DNA from: Candidatus Latescibacterota bacterium
GTDB taxonomy: Bacteria > Latescibacterota > UBA2968
NCBI GenBank assembly: GCA_965204745.1
Contig: OZ242010.1
Span: forward strand, 4,000,001-4,064,000
Direction of reading: 5' to 3'
DNA length: 64,000 bases
The translations under genes and the position numbers were made by a program. Under the pieces are notes generated by a model that had not been told where the DNA came from, searched no databases, and was given only the letters and a program-made list of their open reading frames with translations. Below are positions 3,782 through 58,307 of this stretch, one piece after another (position 1 is the first letter of the stretch; every line of letters begins with the position of its first letter).

Positions 3782-5212
3782 TCAATTCCGAAAATCGCTC
3801 GCATTGTCGAATTGCACCGGGATAACGAGTTCCCCTTGCGGGTTGATATACCCATACTTGTCGTCGATTTTCACGCGCGCCACGCCATGGGAAAACGACC
3901 AGGCAAAGTCGAATTGCGGATTGATCACCACCCGACCATCCGTGTTGATATAGCCCCATCTGCCGAAAATTTTCTGCGCGGATTCTTCAAAAAAGGAAAA
4001 CGTAAAATCGAATTGCGGTTGGATGACCACTTGCCCCTCGGTGTTGATATAGCCCCACTTGCCGTCGATCTGCACGGGTGCCAAGCCATTCATAAACGAG
4101 AACGCCAATTCAAATTGCGGCTCGATGATGATGTCGCCTTTCCTGTCGATGTACCCCCACTTGCCATTGAGTTCTACGCGCGCCAAGCCCTCGGAAAAGG
4201 ACCGCGCGTCGTCAAACCGCGGGGGGATCACCTCTTCGCCCGCGGCGTTGATGTAGCCCCACTTGCCACTCTCTTTGATGCGTGCCAAGCCCTCGGAAAA
4301 GGACTCGGGATCGTCGGTTTGTTCGGGCACGACCACCTCGCCTTTTTCATTGATGTACCCCCACTTGCTGCCGAGTTTCACGCGCGCCAAGCCTTCGGAA
4401 AAGGACCGGGTAATGTCGAATTGCGGGGGAATCGAGACGATCCCCTTTGCGTTGACATAGCCCCACCTGCTATTGATTTCCACGCGCGCCAGGCCGTTTG
4501 AAAAATCCCACGCGCTTTCAAATTGCGGAAAAATCACGCGCACGCCCCGGGGATTGATGTACCCCCACTTGCCATCGACTTCTACGCGCCCCAGGCTGTC
4601 CGAAAAATCCCAAGCCGTGTCGAACTGCGGGGCGATCACGGCCTCGCCCGTTGCGTTGATGTACCCCCACTTGTCGTCGATTTCCACCGCGGCCAAGCCC
4701 TGGGAAAAGGACCGCGCATCGTCGAATTGCGGTGCGATCACGGCCTCGCCCGTTGCGTTGATGTACCCCCACTTGTCGTCGATCTTCACGAGTGCCCGTC
4801 CATCTGCGAATGCCCACGCATCTTCCCCGTCAAATTTGGGGGGGATCACCACTTCTCCGGTCTGGTCGATATAGCCCCACTTGCCATTGAGCTCCACGCG
4901 CGCCAACCCGTCTGCGAAGGACCACGCATTGTCGAATTTGGGAGGGATCGCCATTTCGCCTTGGGTGTTGATATAGCCCCACTTGCCGTTGAGTTCCACG
5001 CGCGCCAACCCGTCTGCGAAGGACCACGCATTGTCGAATTTTAGGGGGATCACCATTTCGCCTTGGGTGTTGATGTAGCCCCACTTGCCATCGATTTGAA
5101 CCCGCGCCAAAGGCACGGTTTCGCGGGTCGCGGACTCGTCTGGCAGGTCGCCGGAATTGGCGCACGAAATGATCAGGGTTGCGAAAATCAGGATGTATAA
5201 TTTGTCGTCCAT
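3782..5212 (-). CDS. WG-repeat (KWG) lipoprotein
   Basis: Lipobox-like LIISC, then 13 repeats of about 36 aa (FSEGLARV...GKWGYIN..G..VI.PQFD). Confidence 0.9.
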   Translation of the reverse strand: MDDKLYILIFATLIISCANSGDLPDESATRETVPLARVQIDGKWGYINTQGEMVIPLKFDNAWSFADGLARVELNGKWGYINTQGEMAIPPKFDNAWSFADGLARVELNGKWGYIDQTGEVVIPPKFDGEDAWAFADGRALVKIDDKWGYINATGEAVIAPQFDDARSFSQGLAAVEIDDKWGYINATGEAVIAPQFDTAWDFSDSLGRVEVDGKWGYINPRGVRVIFPQFESAWDFSNGLARVEINSRWGYVNAKGIVSIPPQFDITRSFSEGLARVKLGSKWGYINEKGEVVVPEQTDDPESFSEGLARIKESGKWGYINAAGEEVIPPRFDDARSFSEGLARVELNGKWGYIDRKGDIIIEPQFELAFSFMNGLAPVQIDGKWGYINTEGQVVIQPQFDFTFSFFEESAQKIFGRWGYINTDGRVVINPQFDFAWSFSHGVARVKIDDKYGYINPQGELVIPVQFDNASDFRN

Positions 5213-21960: not shown

Positions 21961-23115
21961 ATGAAAAATGGACTGACTCGGCTCGACGTGGCGTCTTGGG
22001 GTGGGTTTATGATCTTTGCCACCAGCGGGGTGGTGACGCCGATATGTTTGCCCGAAATCGCCAAGACCCTGTCGATTTCCCTGGCTGAAAGCGGCGGCTT
22101 GGAAACGGCGCGTCTGCTTCTCCTGCTCGTGGTCTTGATTTTATCCGGCATCCTCGCACGCACCTGGGGAAAGAAGCACCTCTTGACCTGGGGGCAATAT
22201 CTCACCGCGCTTGGCCTGCTGCTGATCAGCTATGCCGACACCTACCCGCTACTGCTCCTGTCGCTCATGGTCGTGGGCATTGGCGGCGGATTTACCGAGG
22301 CCCTCATCAACCCCTTGGTCGTCGATCTCCATCCCAAAACCCCGGGCAAATACCTCAACATCACCAATGCCTTTTATCCCATCGGCGTCATGGTCGCCGC
22401 GCTCCTGTTCGGCGAACTCTTGACACTCGGCTATTCGTGGCGGATCGCGTTTCGCATTGCCGCCGCCGGCGCGCTCGGCATGGGGATCTGGTTTTACCTG
22501 TCGCGGTTTCCCGCGCCTTCACCCGATCAGCGGTCGTCCATCCGCTTGATCGCGCAAATTCTCAAAATCCCCAAATTTTGGTTCTTTGGCATGGCCCTGT
22601 TTTTGGGCGCGGGCGTGGAGGCCGCGTTCACGTTCTGGAGCCGCAGTTACGTGGAGGTCTATCTCCGCGACATGCCGCGTGCGGGCGCTATCGCCGTGGT
22701 GGTTTTCGCAGGCGCGATGGCCCTCGGTCGCTTGCTTTCTGCGAAATTGTCCTCTAAGATGAGCCAGCAAGCCCTGATGATCGGTTCGGCCCTGCTCGGC
22801 GTGGGCATCAGCAGCGGCATCCCCTTTGCCGATAGCTTGATCGGATTCTACGCGCTGCTCGTTTTCGCCGGATTTGCCGCGGCCTGCTTCTGGCCCACTG
22901 TGCTCGCCGAAGCCGCGGACCGCCTGCCCGTGGACGCCACGATGTTGCTCGTCATGCTCGCGTGTTTCGGCATCGCCGGCTTTGGCATTACCCCGTGGAT
23001 CATGGGCATCATCGGCGACGCGGCCGGCCTCAAAGCGGGCTTCGCGCTCATTCCCGGCCTGTTCATCGGCTTGATTGTGGTGCTCGCGCTGGCGGGACGA
23101 AAACGCAAGAGGTGA
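21961..23115 (+). CDS. MFS transporter (FucP/TsgA-like)
   Basis: ATG at 21961, directly after the sulfatase; 12 TM pattern; EALINPLVVDLHP. Confidence 0.88.
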   Translation: MKNGLTRLDVASWGGFMIFATSGVVTPICLPEIAKTLSISLAESGGLETARLLLLLVVLILSGILARTWGKKHLLTWGQYLTALGLLLISYADTYPLLLLSLMVVGIGGGFTEALINPLVVDLHPKTPGKYLNITNAFYPIGVMVAALLFGELLTLGYSWRIAFRIAAAGALGMGIWFYLSRFPAPSPDQRSSIRLIAQILKIPKFWFFGMALFLGAGVEAAFTFWSRSYVEVYLRDMPRAGAIAVVVFAGAMALGRLLSAKLSSKMSQQALMIGSALLGVGISSGIPFADSLIGFYALLVFAGFAAACFWPTVLAEAADRLPVDATMLLVMLACFGIAGFGITPWIMGIIGDAAGLKAGFALIPGLFIGLIVVLALAGRKRKR

Positions 23116-23153
23116 GAGGCGAGAGGCAAGAGGTAAGATACTCTCTTAAAAGG

Positions 23154-24161
23154 TCAAGGGGTTTTCGGGGTGATTCGATAGAATTTTTCGCCCTCAAAAT
23201 CTTGGTCATGGCGCAACATGCCCCAGATCGAATGGAGCAACTTTCGCATCACCGCAACGATAGCCTGCAAAGGTTTCTTGCCGCGGGCGATGAGTTGGTC
23301 ATAGAAGGCTTTGACATGGCCTTCGTGTCTGATGGCCACCCAGGCAGGCATATAGAGGGCATGGCGGAGGTACTTATTCCCGGTTTTCGAGATGCGTCTT
23401 TGTGGATTGGCGGTTCCGGATTGTTTGGGTTTGGGATCCAGGCCTGCATGTGCGACCCACTGGGGCGGTTGCATCTCCTCTGGCAAAAGGGTCAACTCGG
23501 CCAAGAGCCGCAAGGCACTCGTTTGCGCGATGCCAGGCGTCGAGCAGAGGCGTTGGTAGGCACGCTTGAGGGGCTCATCGTGCAAAACGAGATCGAGGGC
23601 TTGGCTTTCCAAGTATGCAATCCGGCGTTTGAAGTGTCGAATATTCACCTGAATATCGCGTGCGATGAGACGTGTGCTGCGGATGTGGTAGCTCTGCGCG
23701 TGGTTGCGGCTCTGTTCGCGGATGATCTCCTGCTTGAGTTGGTCAATGCGTCTGGTGAGGGCTTGCAGTTGAAGCCGTTGCTCGCTCGGCGCTTGCCAAG
23801 GCACAAAAGGCATGCGCTCGGCATAGTCGAGGATCAACAACGCATCCTTCGCATCCGTCTTCGCCCGTTGCATGCAGGCTTGGGCGTACTTGCTCATCGC
23901 TTTGGGATTGACGACCATGACCTTTGTGTGGCGATGCCGATGCAAGGCCAAGGCCACCCCCAAACTGTAAAGCCCGGTCGCTTCGAGGCACACAGAGACC
24001 ATGTGCCCGCCCTTCGTGAGCCACTTCAGCAACCGCTTATGCGCTTGGGGATCATTGGCAAAGGTCGCTTGCATGACAGCTTGTCCGGGTCTGGACAGGG
24101 CAACGGACAACGTGCGGGCACTGACATCAATGCCGGCAAAAGCGGGGTGAGATTTCGACAT
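23154..24161 (-). CDS. IS110 family DEDD recombinase/transposase
   Basis: GIDVS, CLEATG and KTDAKDA (D-E-D-D); C-terminal AGLDP.PKQSG (catalytic Ser), RISKTGNKYLR, A.VAVMRKL; CAGGAGG RBS. Confidence 0.95.
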   Translation of the reverse strand: MSKSHPAFAGIDVSARTLSVALSRPGQAVMQATFANDPQAHKRLLKWLTKGGHMVSVCLEATGLYSLGVALALHRHRHTKVMVVNPKAMSKYAQACMQRAKTDAKDALLILDYAERMPFVPWQAPSEQRLQLQALTRRIDQLKQEIIREQSRNHAQSYHIRSTRLIARDIQVNIRHFKRRIAYLESQALDLVLHDEPLKRAYQRLCSTPGIAQTSALRLLAELTLLPEEMQPPQWVAHAGLDPKPKQSGTANPQRRISKTGNKYLRHALYMPAWVAIRHEGHVKAFYDQLIARGKKPLQAIVAVMRKLLHSIWGMLRHDQDFEGEKFYRITPKTP

Positions 24162-24231
24162 GGGGGCCTCCTGTGATGAGGGGGTTGTAAGGGATCTGGT
24201 GCGCGCTCGGGGTCGCGTCCCGACCATTGAC

Positions 24232-24414
24232 GCCAAGTCTACCGGTCTTGTATATGCAGCCTCAAGGGGCTTAGATACTCTTCGGCATAGACCCGGCGGT
24301 CGGGGGGCCTATCTTACCTACAAGGTCATCGCCTTCAAGAGGGGCCGGCCTTCCCCGAGCCGGGCATCAAGATGGCTTATCTCGATACGAGGGCGCAACT
24401 CCTAATTAACCCTT
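24232..24414 (-). ncRNA. Putative IS110 bridge RNA (target- and donor-binding loops)
   Basis: Minus strand target loop: CCCCTCT..AAGG-cgatga-CCTT..AGGTAAGA. Donor loop: GTCTA..AGAGTATCT..AGCC-ccttga-GGCT..ATACAAGA..TAGAC. Guides match the insertion site and the element ends. RNA boundaries are approximate. Confidence 0.8.
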
Positions 24415-24548
24415 ACTTCCAAGATACAAGAGGGGAGAGGCGAGATGGGAGTTTATTAGGTTCTGTTGACATTTACGAGCAAAGCAACTGGCTTGATCGG
24501 TTTATCGAGAAAATCAAGCCCTATCGCAGAAGGTTTGAGAAACTGAAA

Positions 24549-24836
24549 CAGTCGCTCCTTATCGGGACCTACCCCCCTAACCCCCCTTCCTGCGAGGAAG
24601 GGGGGAACGGTGAGCGGTTTTGCGAGGGTATTGATGAGAGATATTTAATCGCTTTATGCCCTCAGAGCAACCATAGCGAGAAGCCATCAAAGGGACTTTA
24701 CTCCCCTTTCCTCGTAGGAAAGGGGCCGGGGGATAGGTCCCCTCGCAAAACGCCATCAGAGCAACCTAAGCCATCAAAGGACCAAACGCCTTAAATGAGC
24801 AAGAAGCAACACAGTTACTACTCTGTGCGTAACGTC
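24549..24836 (+). mobile_element. MITE-like palindromic repeat, copy B
   Basis: Starts CAGTCGCTCCTTATCGGGACCTACCCCCC and ends CTGTGCGTAACGTC, as copy A does. Confidence 0.75.
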
Positions 24837-24967
24837 AAAAAATGAAATGTCAACACAACCTAGCCACAAAAGCCACGAGCGGGGTACAACTGGCGACAAC
24901 CCGTTCAAAGGCGAGCAGTGAGTGTAGGTCTTCTCCCGTCTTGCCTCTCACCTTTAGGAAGGACATC

Positions 24968-26317
24968 ATGGTTTTTGACAACATCGCGCTTGGCGTGCCC
25001 AAAATTTTGTTGCCCAAGCCCGAAATCAACTGCGAGAAGTGGGCGGTGATCGCCTGCGATCAGTATGTCCACGACCGGTCGTATTGGGAGGAGGTCGAGC
25101 GCGTTGTGGGCGATGCGCCGTCGACGCTGGCCCTCATCTATCCCGAAGTCTATTTGTCCGACGATGGGCACGAAGAGCGGATTGATCGCGTGCATCGCAA
25201 CATGAAGCGCTTTGTCGCGGCTGGGGTGTTCCGCGAGGAAATCGAGGGCTTTTTGCTCGTCGACCGCGTCCTGCCGTCTGGGAAATCGCGCAAGGGGTTG
25301 GTGGTCGCGCTCGACTTGGAGCACTACGACAGCCGAAGCCAGTCCAAAACCCTCATCCGCACAACCGAGGGCACGTATCCCAAAAACCTCGAAGCGCGGT
25401 TGGAGGTTCGGGGCAACGCATCGCTCGAATGCCCGCATACCCTCGTGCTCATCGACGATCCGAACCGGGAAATCATCGACCCCCTGTTTGAAGAAGGGCA
25501 CCCCACTATCGCGGATTTTGAACTCATGATGCACGGCGGGCGGCTCGCATACCGCTTGATCTCTCGCAAAGCGGACCTCGCGCGCATTGCCCAAAAGCTC
25601 GCGGCGCGGATCGCACCGGCGTATATCCGCGAAAAATACGGCGTTAAAAACGAAACGCTCCTGTACGCGATGGGCGATGGCAACCATTCCTTTGCCGCGG
25701 CGCAAAAAGCGTGGGAAAGGATCAAATCCACGCTCGGCAACGCACGAGACGCTACGCGACATCCGGCGCGGTACGCGATGGTCGAGTTGATCAACCTACA
25801 CGACGACGCGATAGACATCGAGCCGATCCACAGGCTGATCACCCGCGTCGATCCCCTGGTCGCGTGCAACGCGATCGTCGCATTGCTCAATGCGTCTGGC
25901 GCGCAGGCGCGGTTGGAAGTGGTCGCGTCGCCCGAGGCGCGAGACCAACGCCTCAGCGCATTGGCGTCTGAATCCACGCATTGCTTGCCCTATCGCGCTG
26001 CCGGAGGCATGGGCATTTTGGCAATCGAAAATCCATCGCAGAGAACCATCCCGGAAACGATGGAAACCGCGCTCGAGTTGTTCACGCGAGAAAATCCCGA
26101 AGCCGAGGTCGGATTCATCCACGGCGCGGAGGTGATCGACGACTTGGGCAATCGACCCGATGCGCTCGGCTTTTACCTGCCGCCGATTTCAAAAGACAGC
26201 GTCTTTGAGTCTATCGTGCACTACGGCGCGTATCCCCGCAAATCCATCTCCATCGGTCACGCGGATGAGAAGCGGTATTATATGGAGTGTAGGAGTTTGG
26301 GGATCAGTAGTCAGTAG
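24968..26317 (+). CDS. DUF1015 family protein
   Basis: ILLPK..WAVIACDQY, PSTL.LIYPEVYL, DLEHYD, LYAMGDGNHS, LINLHD, EPIHR, SIGHADEKRYYMECR. Confidence 0.9.
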   Translation: MVFDNIALGVPKILLPKPEINCEKWAVIACDQYVHDRSYWEEVERVVGDAPSTLALIYPEVYLSDDGHEERIDRVHRNMKRFVAAGVFREEIEGFLLVDRVLPSGKSRKGLVVALDLEHYDSRSQSKTLIRTTEGTYPKNLEARLEVRGNASLECPHTLVLIDDPNREIIDPLFEEGHPTIADFELMMHGGRLAYRLISRKADLARIAQKLAARIAPAYIREKYGVKNETLLYAMGDGNHSFAAAQKAWERIKSTLGNARDATRHPARYAMVELINLHDDAIDIEPIHRLITRVDPLVACNAIVALLNASGAQARLEVVASPEARDQRLSALASESTHCLPYRAAGGMGILAIENPSQRTIPETMETALELFTRENPEAEVGFIHGAEVIDDLGNRPDALGFYLPPISKDSVFESIVHYGAYPRKSISIGHADEKRYYMECRSLGISSQ

Positions 26318-26378
26318 TCAGTAGTCAGTAGTCAGTAGTCAGTTGTCAGTTGTCAGTTGTCAGTTGTCAGTTGTCAGT
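26303..26378. repeat. Heptamer array (GTCAGTA/GTCAGTT)n, interrupted by IS5 and continuing at 27555-27577
   Basis: About 11 tandem 7-mers overlapping the DUF1015 stop codon. Confidence 0.9.
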
Positions 26379-33727: not shown

Positions 33728-33808
33728 CGGGGGCCGGGGGGATAGGGCTATGGCGGCGGGGCGGTGAGGGGACTGACTACTGACTACTGACTACTGACTA
33801 CTGACTAC
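33709..33808 (+). repeat. Fragment of the MITE-like repeat plus (GACTACT)n heptamers
   Basis: CAATGAGCGAAGCGAATAACGGGG matches 10276-10299, followed by GGGGGATAGGG and a TGACTAC array abutting the leuS stop. Confidence 0.8.
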
Positions 33809-36241
33809 TTAAACCACGATGTTGATCAACCGATTGGGAACGACGATGACCTTCTTCGGCGCATTCCCGCTTGTATGAGCGCGAACATTGGGTTGATCCA
33901 ACGCCAGCCGCTCGATATCCTCCTGTGCAACATCGACCTCGACAGCGATGCGAGCGCGAACTTTGCCATTGACCTGAATCGGCATCTCAATCGTCGCCGG
34001 GCGTGCGGTTGCCTCATCCCATTGCGGCCATGCCTGGTCGTGAACGCTGTAGTCGCCTCCGATGCGCGCCCACAGTTCTTCGGACAGGTGCGGCGTAATC
34101 GGGGCCAAGAGCAAGACCAGGGCCTCAATCGCTTCTCGCCACGCATCCGTATGCCCAACCGGCGTGTTCTTGGCCGCGGACAACCCATTGCCAAACGTCA
34201 TCAGCGCGGCCAGCGCGGTATTAAACGCAAAGGACTCGAAATCTTCGGACACCTTGCGGATGGTCTGATGCGTCAACCGGCGCAACTCAGCCTCGGCCTT
34301 CTGCGAGGATTTGCCCCTTGCCGGGGGGGCATCGTCAACGACGATGCGCCACACCCGGTTCAAAAACCGCGGCATGCCCTCCATGCCGGACGAACTCCAC
34401 GGCCCGCCTTGCTCCCACCGGCTCAAAAACATCATATACGCCCGGATGCAATCCGTTCCATACTTTTCGATCAAATCGTCGGGATTGATGACATTCCCGC
34501 GCGACTTGCTCATTTTTTCGTGGTCTTCACTCAGCACAACGCCCTGATTGAACAAGCGCGTCATTGGCTCGTCGTCACTGACGAGATCCATATCGCGCAG
34601 GGCTTTGGTGAAAAAGCGCGTGTAGAGCAAATGCATGGTCGCGTGTTCGATCCCGCCCGTGTATTGATCCACGGGCAACCAATAGTCTGCCTCGTGCGGG
34701 GCAAAGGGCCCGGCGTCGTACTGCGGGCTTAAATAGCGATATTGATACCATGACGAACACATAAACGTATCCATCGTATCCGTTTCGCGTTGCGCCTGTG
34801 AACCACATCTCGGGCAGGTCGCGTGCAAAAAACCCTCGTGGTGCTTGAGAGGGGATTCGCCCGTGGGCAAAAACTCCGCGTCATCGGGCAACAGCACGGG
34901 CAAATCGCGCAGGGGCACGGGCACAGTGCCGCAGGCATCGCAATAAATAATCGGAATCGGACAACCCCAATACCGCTGTCGGGAAATCAACCAATCGTGC
35001 AGGCGATAATTGACCGTGCGCTCGCCAATCCCCCGCGCTTCCAAATCATCGGCCACACGCGCCATGCCCTCGGACGAAGACGATCCCGTAAAACCCCCGG
35101 AGTTCACCATGCGCCCGGCACCGGTGTACGGCAGGTCATAGACATCCCTATCGCCTGGCGCGATCACGACCGGAACCGGCAACGCGTACTTTTTCGCAAA
35201 ATCAAAATCCCGATCATCGTGCGCGGGCACGCCCATAATGGCACCCGTGCCGTATTGCGGCAACACGTAATCCGCGACGTAAATCGGCACTTCCGCGCCG
35301 TTCATCGGGTTGATCGCATAAGCCCCGGTGAAAACCCCGTCCCTATCCCGGTCCAAAGAGAGCCGATCTTTTTCCGTCTGCCGATCCGCCGCGGCGCAAT
35401 ACGCTTTCACAACTGCGCGCTGATCGGGCGACGTGATCGCATCGACCAACCGGTGTTCCGGGGCCAAAACCGCGAAGGACACCCCGAAAATCGTATCGGC
35501 GCGGGTGGTGAACACGCGGAATGACGCCGATGAATTTTTGACGCGCATTTCAAATTCAACGCCCTCGCTGCGGCCAATCCAATTCTCTTGCATGGCATGC
35601 ACCCGGTCGGGCCAGGCGACTTTAGAAAAATCGAGCAATTCCTCGGCGTATTGGGTAATTCGAAACAGCCACTGGTCGAGGTTCTTCTTGATCACGGGCG
35701 TATTGCACCGCTCGCAATGCCTGTCCTCTCCCCAAACCTGTTCGCGGGCCAGGGTCGTATTGCACTTTGGGCACCAGTCCACCGGGGATTTTTTTCGATA
35801 CGCCAGCCCATTGGCGTAAAATTTGAGGAACAACCACTGCGTCCACTTGTAGTAGTCGGGCAAACAAGTGATGATCTCGCGTTCCCAGTCGAACATCGCG
35901 CCCATCGTCTTCAGTTGCCCGCGCATGTGTTCCACGTTGTCCATCGTCCATTTGGCCGGGTGAATCCCGCGTTGGATGGCGGCGTTTTCAGCGGGCAGGC
36001 CAAACGCATCAAACCCGATGGGAAACAACACGTTGTACCCCTTCATCCGCATGTACCGCGCGCGCACATCCGGCGGCACCAGGGCGTACCAATGCCCAAT
36101 GTGCAGATCGCCCGAGGTGTAGGGCAACATCGCCAGCGCGTAGTGCTTGGGCCGTTTGGGGTCAATTTCGCAGCGGTACAGCGCGGAATCCTTCCAGCGT
36201 TGCCGCCATTTTTTTTCAATTTCAGCAAACTCGTAAGCCAT
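33809..36241 (-). CDS. leuS: Leucine--tRNA ligase
   Basis: MLPYTSGDLHIGH (HIGH), GFDAFGLPAENAA, DWLISRQRYWG, KMSKS, QVNGKVR. Confidence 0.97.
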   Translation of the reverse strand: MAYEFAEIEKKWRQRWKDSALYRCEIDPKRPKHYALAMLPYTSGDLHIGHWYALVPPDVRARYMRMKGYNVLFPIGFDAFGLPAENAAIQRGIHPAKWTMDNVEHMRGQLKTMGAMFDWEREIITCLPDYYKWTQWLFLKFYANGLAYRKKSPVDWCPKCNTTLAREQVWGEDRHCERCNTPVIKKNLDQWLFRITQYAEELLDFSKVAWPDRVHAMQENWIGRSEGVEFEMRVKNSSASFRVFTTRADTIFGVSFAVLAPEHRLVDAITSPDQRAVVKAYCAAADRQTEKDRLSLDRDRDGVFTGAYAINPMNGAEVPIYVADYVLPQYGTGAIMGVPAHDDRDFDFAKKYALPVPVVIAPGDRDVYDLPYTGAGRMVNSGGFTGSSSSEGMARVADDLEARGIGERTVNYRLHDWLISRQRYWGCPIPIIYCDACGTVPVPLRDLPVLLPDDAEFLPTGESPLKHHEGFLHATCPRCGSQAQRETDTMDTFMCSSWYQYRYLSPQYDAGPFAPHEADYWLPVDQYTGGIEHATMHLLYTRFFTKALRDMDLVSDDEPMTRLFNQGVVLSEDHEKMSKSRGNVINPDDLIEKYGTDCIRAYMMFLSRWEQGGPWSSSGMEGMPRFLNRVWRIVVDDAPPARGKSSQKAEAELRRLTHQTIRKVSEDFESFAFNTALAALMTFGNGLSAAKNTPVGHTDAWREAIEALVLLLAPITPHLSEELWARIGGDYSVHDQAWPQWDEATARPATIEMPIQVNGKVRARIAVEVDVAQEDIERLALDQPNVRAHTSGNAPKKVIVVPNRLINIVV

Positions 36242-58280: not shown

Positions 58281-58307
58281 ATCAGTTGTCAGTTGTCAGT
58301 TGTCAGT
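58281..58307. repeat. Heptamer array (TCAGTTG)n
   Basis: atcagttgtcagttgtcagttgtcagt. Confidence 0.8.

Follow-up and report, generated by a model that had tools for sequence, protein, structure and literature searches.

A 64,000-nucleotide stretch of the genome of a Candidatus Latescibacterota bacterium (GenBank assembly GCA_965204745.1, contig OZ242010.1, positions 4,000,001 to 4,064,000; hereafter the window), which sits within a single 5.48-Mb contig of 56.5% G+C, carries an IS110-group insertion sequence of 1295 bp at positions 23136-24430 of the minus strand, the CT dinucleotide at either end included. Based on its guides, its genomic copies and their flanking sequences, it is very probably an active or very recently active element whose left end encodes a bridge RNA that directs the choice of insertion site. 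The element is intact and recently amplified, and each of its 52 full-length copies is located within an array of a seven-nucleotide tandem repeat or at the edge of one. The initial annotation had proposed an intact RNA-guided recombinase element with the guide order of IS621, a proposal supported by the copies, the covariation of guides and flanks, the RNA fold and the catalytic residues; its phrase "candidate new programmable ortholog" describes the element fairly, whereas "a new kind of system" would not.

The element is a clear further example of a known mechanism, which was described in 2024 and is not itself new. Its value lies in a natural data set consisting of a closed genome, 52 copies, four guide classes and counts of occupied and empty sites; what is unusual is the tandem-repeat landing pad, the high copy number and the presence of several guide classes within one genome. 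The anatomy, copy distribution, covariation, RNA fold, catalytic residues and promoter geometry were worked out in this analysis, and transcription, circle formation, base pairing, RNA-protein binding and catalysis or recombination would proceed as described in the literature on IS621 and its family. Coordinates are window positions, and all features of the element are on the minus strand.

Structure of the Element and Its Guides

The left junction reads ...cccct CT followed by TGTATCTTGG, with CT at 24430-24429, and the right junction reads ...AGAGTAT CT followed by tacct, with CT at 23137-23136; each of these core dinucleotides is found at the corresponding end of all 52 copies. The same CT thus stands at both junctions, there is no longer target duplication, and empty paralogous sites carry a single CT. 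Once the element and one CT are removed, the seven-nucleotide phase of the surroundings returns, with a CT 7 nt upstream in 45 of the 52 copies and 7 nt downstream in 48. The outer limits of the element are the ends common to the 52 full-length blastn matches, and they are fixed exactly by 14 unoccupied copies of a dispersed repeat that serves as the site of one subfamily, in which the left flank, one CT and the right flank are contiguous. Between these limits lie a 269-nt non-coding left end, an open reading frame (ORF) of 335 codons and an 18-nt right end. In the IS110 group the left end is the longer one and encodes the RNA, and the arrangement is reversed in the IS1111 group (PMC11208160); the long left end and short right end therefore assign the element to the IS110 group rather than to the IS1111 group.

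The left end holds four guides in the order known from IS621. In the target-binding loop (24298-24360), the left target guide (LTG) CCCCTCT, made up of five nucleotides and the core (24338-24344), matches the left target, the flanking half CCCCT (24431-24435) having the same letters as its non-core part. The right target guide (RTG) AGGTAAGA, made up of five nucleotides, the core and one further base (24312-24319), is the reverse complement of the core plus the right target, and the flanking half TACCT (23131-23135) is accordingly the reverse complement of its non-core part. An inner stem AAGG/CCTT (24335-24332/24325-24322) separates these two guides. In the donor-binding loop (24232-24297), which is closed by a stem GTCTA/TAGAC (24292-24288/24241-24237), the left donor guide (LDG) AGAGTATCT (24273-24281) matches the left donor half AGAGTAT at the terminus of the right end (23138-23144), and after an inner stem AGCC/GGCT (24271-24268/24261-24258) the right donor guide (RDG) ATACAAGA (24246-24253) is the reverse complement of the right donor half TGTAT at the start of the left end (24424-24428). 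The small stems were read directly from the sequence. The initial annotation had placed the junctions, the four guides and these stems at the same coordinates, all of which are correct on a minus-strand reading.

Taken together, the guides match a target CCCCT-CT-TACCT and the joined ends AGAGTAT-CT-TGTAT, core included in each, with 7 contiguous matching bases for LTG, 8 for RTG, 9 for LDG and 8 for RDG. The four 7-nt guide cores did not occur in this order in any of 200,000 mononucleotide shuffles of the leader, and three of them occurred in 3 shuffles. The donor sequences are held constant: the first bases of the element are alike in 51 of the 52 copies, the remaining copy having a 1-nt insertion, and the last 14 bases are alike in all 52; among 21 leaders compared, LDG and the right end that it matches are both nearly invariant.

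Contigs of four runs from four studies were compared with positions 22700-24900, and no contig spans the stretch. Neither a circle junction (24428 joined to 23136) nor an empty site at this locus was found in the contigs of these four runs, a result counted neither way because such contigs cannot show rare forms. One contig joint, from 24437 to 23103 ("goes back 1335"), is best explained by a different copy whose array on the left resembles the right flank at this locus, and another, 23131-24421, has one side of only 20 nt and is not interpretable. Variant letters from the other runs fall in LTG and RTG, among other leader positions.

Genomic Copies and Site Occupancy

A blastn search of the genome with the element gave 77 matches, 52 of them full length. 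Thirty copies are 100% identical, seven are 99.07-99.92% identical, eight are at 96.1%, one each is at 95.8% and 94.8%, and five are at 88.5-89.1% (the 89% subfamily). No other IS110 family was found in the genome, all 57 PF01548 matches coinciding with DNA matches of the element. Every one of the 52 copies lies inside or at the edge of a heptamer array in which CT recurs in phase, and the flanks follow the pattern NNCCT/NCCCT-CT...CT-YRCNT. For 51 copies, two or more additional units in phase occur within 35 nt; the array next to the one remaining copy is out of register by one base.

The flanks of each copy were compared with the guides that it carries, G-U/G-T being counted as wobble. Both halves pair perfectly by Watson-Crick rules in 23 of the 52 copies, both are fully paired with wobble permitted in 43, and at least one half is fully paired in 51. 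Other copies at sites that do not fit the guides had been named beforehand as the finding that would tell against guided insertion; these counts come out in favour of it. The commonest departure, TGCCT in place of TACCT in 17 copies, would form a U-G wobble with RTG. Eight of the nine imperfect insertions retain one perfect half, as the available text of a preprint on half-matches reports for IS621 off-targets.

Comparison of occupied with empty sites gives a natural readout of specificity. The exact site CCCCT-CT-TACCT is occupied 20 times and empty 5 times (20/25), CCCCT-CT-TGCCT, with its single G-U wobble, is occupied 17 times and empty 65 times (17/82), and TACCT-CT-TACCT, with a two-base mismatch in one half, is occupied 4 times and empty 83 times (4/87). 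The commonest array junction, TGCCT/TGCCT, is present at 212 sites and has received no insertion (the unoccupied array-like in-phase sites number 2,643 in all). A Fisher test that set the exact site against the remaining array-like sites gave p of about 1e-33. Specificity is finer than mere insertion into arrays: insertion tracks the guide and not the abundance of sites.

These counts bear on the proposal that the element is a genuine IS110 member which finds the arrays through its protein, or through an unusual polypurine/polypyrimidine DNA structure, so that the guide matches are incidental or secondary. All insertions are in pyrimidine-rich arrays that could adopt non-B structures, and a 2026 preprint on ISPpu10, in its available text, describes an IS110 element that needs a structural as well as a sequence match (bioRxiv 10.64898/2026.03.19.712850). 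Such a proposal is nevertheless very improbable, since within the arrays the exact site is filled and the far more abundant junction is left empty, and since guide and flank change together even in relatives outside arrays, namely those of the related genomes G016 and G036 described below and Methylococcales-type elements.

It is still harder to believe, and can be given hardly any probability, that the copies are immobile relics spread by duplication of larger repeats and that their flanks are uniform through shared ancestry. Four of the five 89% copies do lie in one dispersed repeat, with flanks similar over more than 30 nt, and 21 of the 52 copies occupy an array's left edge, in many cases next to GGTGGCC-like or GGTGGG-like sequence. 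Against this, the flanks of the 37 near-identical copies diverge past 12-20 nt, the 30 identical copies are the same over all 1295 bp and their surroundings are not, the ORF is intact in 51 of the 52 copies, and the 14 unoccupied repeat copies with an intact site fit independent site-specific insertion.

The dispersed repeat in question reads ...AAGCGGCGGTAGGGYGGTGGG... TCT-CGCCT-CT-TACTT-CT-TGCCT-CT-TACTT-GGGGATAGGGCTTGCGG and contains a three-unit mini-array, which is the landing site of the 89% subfamily; its unoccupied places include C1:157599, 2082455 and 4151330.

The same left-edge copies, and the use of this mini-array by a subfamily whose repeat has 14 empty paralogues, could also mean that the true target is a specific junction in dispersed repeats with short heptamer tails and that insertions in long arrays are by-products. 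In addition, a repeat of about 435 bp that adjoins the copy in the window is no more than 150 bp away from 102 of 532 arrays, compared with 4.5% of random positions, although this link is modest and the untargeted CAGT arrays described below are similarly placed (71/348). This alternative is rather unlikely, though it deserves some weight: at least two in-phase units are present on the left of 31 and on the right of 42 of the 52 copies, and the guide spans only 12 bp and cannot read past two units. It refines the explanation by guided insertion and does not replace it.

Several individual copies with unusual arrangements were also observed. At C1:1121591-1124182, two copies of 100% and 96% identity stand in tandem in the same orientation with only TACCT between them, the product of two successive insertions in neighbouring units. 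The copy at C1:602780-604074 is a mosaic whose leader columns 26-100 resemble the 89% subfamily and whose remainder resembles the 96% group; together with flanks that suit the guides of another subfamily, this hints at recombination between copies or at an insertion directed in trans. A mini-derivative, seen in one copy at G000:C1:2972659-2972850, consists of left-end positions 1-185, ending at RDG ...ATACAAGA, joined to the right-end GTATCT; the join recreates AGAGTATCT, so that both donor halves are intact, and the flanks, within an array, are CCCCT-CT and CT-CCCTT. It may be a non-autonomous derivative mobilisable in trans.

Covariation of Guides and Flanks

Changes in the guides are accompanied by changes in the targets within this genome, in three other genomes and among more distant relatives, in agreement with what the initial annotation had suggested looking for. 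Among the four guide classes of this genome, the copy at 1297034, with LTG TCCCT and an RTG whose reverse complement is CACCT, lies between TCCCT on the left and CACCT on the right. In the 89% group, LTG reads CGCCT or TGCCT and the reverse complement of RTG is TACTT; on the left these copies are flanked by CGCCT, CACCT or TACCT, and on the right by TACTT in four of the five, compared with one of 45 copies of the main class.

Forty related genomes were searched, and three (G016, G018 and G036) have a homologue at E values up to 1e-30. In G016 (80-84% protein identity, seven places), the reverse complement of RTG is TTTCT, or TTCCT in one case, and the right flank is TTTCT in five of the seven places, a sixth pairing by wobble. 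On the left, the flanking halves are rich in C and match at 2-5 of 5 positions; the sites are not heptamer arrays. In G018 (76-78% protein identity), all 18 copies are in arrays, LTG is TCGCCT, and the left flanks are YRCCT throughout, comprising CGCCT (5), wobble-paired CACCT (7) and forms with one unpaired base (6). In G036 (54% protein identity), the reverse complement of RTG is AACGT and so is the right flank of all three copies, which are inserted in non-array sequences. As a separate observation, LTG of these G036 loci (L086-L088) ends in AT and the left junction is AT in two of three, with CT kept at the right junction and in RTG; the core may be read differently on its two sides in this genome.

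Among distant relatives with distinct guide/flank pairs, at least four of five bases match in 12 of 15 left halves and 9 of 17 right halves, and the mean number of matches is 4.00 (left) and 3.71 (right) with the element's own flanks compared with 2.24 and 1.83 with the flanks of other elements. Six copies in one gammaproteobacterial metagenome-assembled genome (L090-L094 and L106), for which no right end was found within 260 nt of the ORF, enter the left-half counts only. The poor left-half matches of L103 and L090, for which the script probably picked a wrong CTTGTAT, were kept in the counts.

Predicted Leader RNA

Folded as a single sequence, the leader gives a 5' hairpin followed by two long stem-loops, with a modest z of -2.26. 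The predicted 5' hairpin (24364-24388), with 10 pairs and a 5-nt loop, appears in both the minimum-free-energy and the centroid fold of the single sequence only. The RNAalifold consensus of 21 leaders from four genomes consists of the target-binding and donor-binding stem-loops, each with an outer stem, a big internal loop that contains its two guides, and a four-pair inner hairpin between them. In the leader alignment the scaffold is nearly invariant and LTG and RTG are the most variable columns.

A covariance model of both loops (R1; 129 positions, 32 pairs) matched immediately upstream of the recombinase ORF in 25 of the 30 loci searched, among them those of 22 relatives that belong to several phyla and have 37-55% protein identity; the remaining five, which lack a match, are partial, or are partial matches at 26-58%. 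One extra R1 match, at E 0.84 on the opposite strand, was rejected as spurious. In the R1 alignment (21 distinct rows), 90.8% of cells are paired compared with 27-45% when partners are slid, and both-side changes occur in 21 of the 32 pairs (9 of 15 in helices 1 and 2 of the target loop, 12 of 17 in helices 3 to 5 of the donor loop), values attained in none of 500 shuffles, but these figures lean towards structure because the alignment was fitted to the model and thereby favours it, and because the sequences are kin and the shuffle controls hence overstate significance. The two-loop fold predicted for the RNA is supported by these compensatory changes.

By eye, the three RNA bases that follow the RTG core (A-U-A) complement the donor TAT and not the target CCT, which would fit the handshake idea put forward in the available text of PMC11208158; by the same inspection, no equivalent was evident after RDG.

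Besides the lean of the covariance figures, several results weigh against the explanation by guided insertion. Nine of the 52 copies have a half that does not fully pair with their own guides: four have the left half TACCT opposite LTG CCCCT, two have the right half CCCGT and one has TGCCC, one copy of the 89% group has TACCT in place of TACTT, and the mosaic copy at 602780 fits its own guides at only 4/5 and 3/5 bases and fits those of copy 1297034 instead, a misfit that later gene conversion of the leader or insertion in trans would explain. In G018, RTG is one base shorter, and on the right flank only CCC pairs, in 16 of 18 copies. A search of Rfam 15 with positions 22500-25000 gave no match at E values up to 1, a result of little weight, since that database may hold no bridge RNA family.

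Recombinase and Proposed Mechanism

The recombinase gene (23154-24161, 335 aa) is preceded by a ribosome-binding site AGGAGG (24167-24172), read directly from the sequence 5 nt upstream of the ATG. Pfam and PDB matches assign to its product a RuvC-like DEDD domain, a coiled coil and a Tnp domain, with matches to PF01548 DEDD_Tnp_IS110 (E 1.2e-24) and PF02371 Transposase_20 (E 4.8e-20). The best relative of solved structure is the ISCro4 transposase (PDB 9t56, E 7.6e-40, residues 7-326 aligned), and the IS621 transposase (PDB 8wt6) matches in phmmer at E 5.8e-36. The acidic residues D12, E60, D103 and D106 align with D11, E60, D102 and D105 of the IS621 DEDD motif, and S248-G249 of the Tnp domain stands opposite S241-G242; as the PDB chain has two extra N-terminal residues, IS621 numbering was matched by motif. 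In IS621, these residues are essential according to the available text of PMC11208158.

At the ends of the element, a -35-like hexamer TTGACC overlaps the stop codon in the right end (23152-23157), and a -10-like hexamer TATCTT, which is weak with four of six consensus bases, lies in the left end (24421-24426); the two are 18 nt apart only when the ends are joined. TTGACC or TTGAAC is kept in G016, G018 and G036, and in five relatives, drawn from three genomes, the hexamers are 17 nt apart once the ends are joined, so that across four genomes the promoter-like geometry arises only over the joined right and left ends. In the integrated copy, a consensus scan found no leader promoter and no terminator, and gave one weak promoter-like site within the ORF. 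In IS621, excision re-forms a promoter over the joined ends (PMC11208160).

By analogy with that element, a possible sequence of events can be proposed. The element would leave its site as a circle, and the joining of the right end to the left end would place TTGACC 18 nt from TATCTT to form a promoter driving a leader RNA of about 200 nt. In this RNA, the donor-binding loop could pair with the joined ends AGAGTAT-CT-TGTAT and the target-binding loop with CCCCT-CT-TACCT, after which a tetramer of the DEDD/Ser recombinase may exchange strands at the CT core. Subfamilies with altered guides would in the same way come to occupy correspondingly altered unit pairs. Because the target is one unit pair in arrays that number in the hundreds, the element could reach about 52 copies.

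Heptamer Arrays as a Landing Pad

At the locus itself, repeats of period 7 were detected with Tandem Repeats Finder at 23105-23138 and 24429-24451, which gives an array of 23105-23135 to the right of the element and one of 24431-24451 to its left. Genome-wide, seven nucleotides is the most frequent short repeat period by a wide margin: arrays of at least three perfect units number 371 at period 7, 59 at period 6 and 7 at period 8. The heptamers fall into two main classes, CT-phased pyrimidine-rich units and units containing CAGT, and no IS110 element aimed at the CAGT class was found in the genome. The initial annotation had the guide specify the heptamer microsatellite of the genome; this stands for the CT-phased pyrimidine-rich class, and does not extend to the microsatellite in general, as the guide specifies one pair of adjacent units and the CAGT class is untargeted.

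The CT-phased four-unit pattern has 1301 matches here and 1254 in G018, whereas none of the other 39 relatives has more than 36, and the CAGT pattern has 1023 here, 1 in G018 and at most 81 elsewhere among the 40 relatives. The two genomes rich in CT-phased arrays are thus the two whose elements target such arrays, a link which, with only two genomes that are kin, is an observation and not a test. It could be accounted for if element and arrays amplified each other, guided recombination between units (target loop against target loop, or by half-match) adding or removing units and seeding arrays, and guides diversifying after variants of the unit. Were this so, it would explain the more than 35-fold excess of the CT-phased class in the two members of the genus with heptamer-targeting copies. 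The idea is doubtful, however, and we give it a low probability: the CAGT class is equally expanded here with no IS110 element targeting it, so that arrays evidently expand in one genome or another whether or not an element targets them, and the association rests on two related genomes.

The CAGT class, with units such as TCAGTAG, ACTGACT and TCAGTTG, accounts for some 215 of 361 perfect arrays with three or more units, and in the window it is represented, for example, at 26304-26378, 33772-33809 and 58282-58307.

Comparison with Known Systems

The closest characterized mechanism is that of IS621 from E. coli (Durrant et al. 2024, PMC11208160; Hiraizumi et al. 2024, PMC11208158). In the available text of these papers, IS621 shares with the present element the DEDD RuvC-like and Tnp domains with their five catalytic residues; a long left end encoding a 5' hairpin, a target loop and a donor loop in that order (PMC11208160); left guides (LTG, LDG) that have the same sense as the left halves, right guides (RTG, RDG) that complement the right halves, and the CT core in all four; a promoter, putative in the present element, that is split between right and left ends; and a natural target that is repeated. 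The present element differs in that its protein, by the phmmer score given above, is a distant relative and in that it is known from its sequence alone. Its LTG has five non-core bases, whereas a nine-base LTG was analysed for IS621, and its RTG is a contiguous five bases plus core, whereas a four-base RTG was analysed there (both PMC11208160). The target here is a pair of heptamer units and that of IS621 an 11-bp site ATCAGGCCTAC (PMC11208160), and the present element has 52 copies in one genome. ISCro4 (PDB 9t56) shares the domain order, the comparison being by protein sequence only.

ISPpu9 and ISPpu10 of Pseudomonas putida are, like the present element, multi-copy members of the IS110 family, each inserted in one repeated intergenic sequence (PMC12288879; bioRxiv 10.64898/2026.03.19.712850). 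In contrast, the targets described in these sources are repetitive extragenic palindromes or a conserved intergenic sequence and not tandem heptamers, and the copy numbers are far lower, with seven for ISPpu9. The elements of G016, G018 and G036, which are kin at the genus or order level, share 54-84% protein identity, the RNA scaffold, the split promoter geometry and the donor ends ...AGAGTATCT / CTTGTATCTT..., and differ in their guides, that of G018 targeting another unit pair of the CT-phased class.

The present copies show that an RNA-guided element can use a tandem microsatellite as a landing pad for many copies. No report of such a landing pad was found in the literature searched, and the supplementary target motifs of Durrant et al., which that search did not cover, could hold a similar case. 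With its 12-bp recognition, its compact and well-conserved RNA scaffold and a lineage far from the enterobacterial elements in use so far, the element is a reasonable candidate orthologue for testing.

Other Repeats in the Window

Adjoining the element at 24460-24900 is the dispersed repeat of about 435 bp, which has 777 blastn matches in the genome; each of its positions is covered by about 80-290 matches, and some 20 copies are 430-470 bp long. It has a very high word depth in metagenome contigs and contains a G-rich/C-rich inverted stretch (ccccccttcctcgcaggaagggggg). Elsewhere in the window, the stretch 4148-5110 consists of 9.4 tandem copies of a 102-bp unit (72% matches) and is probably a repeat-containing coding region.

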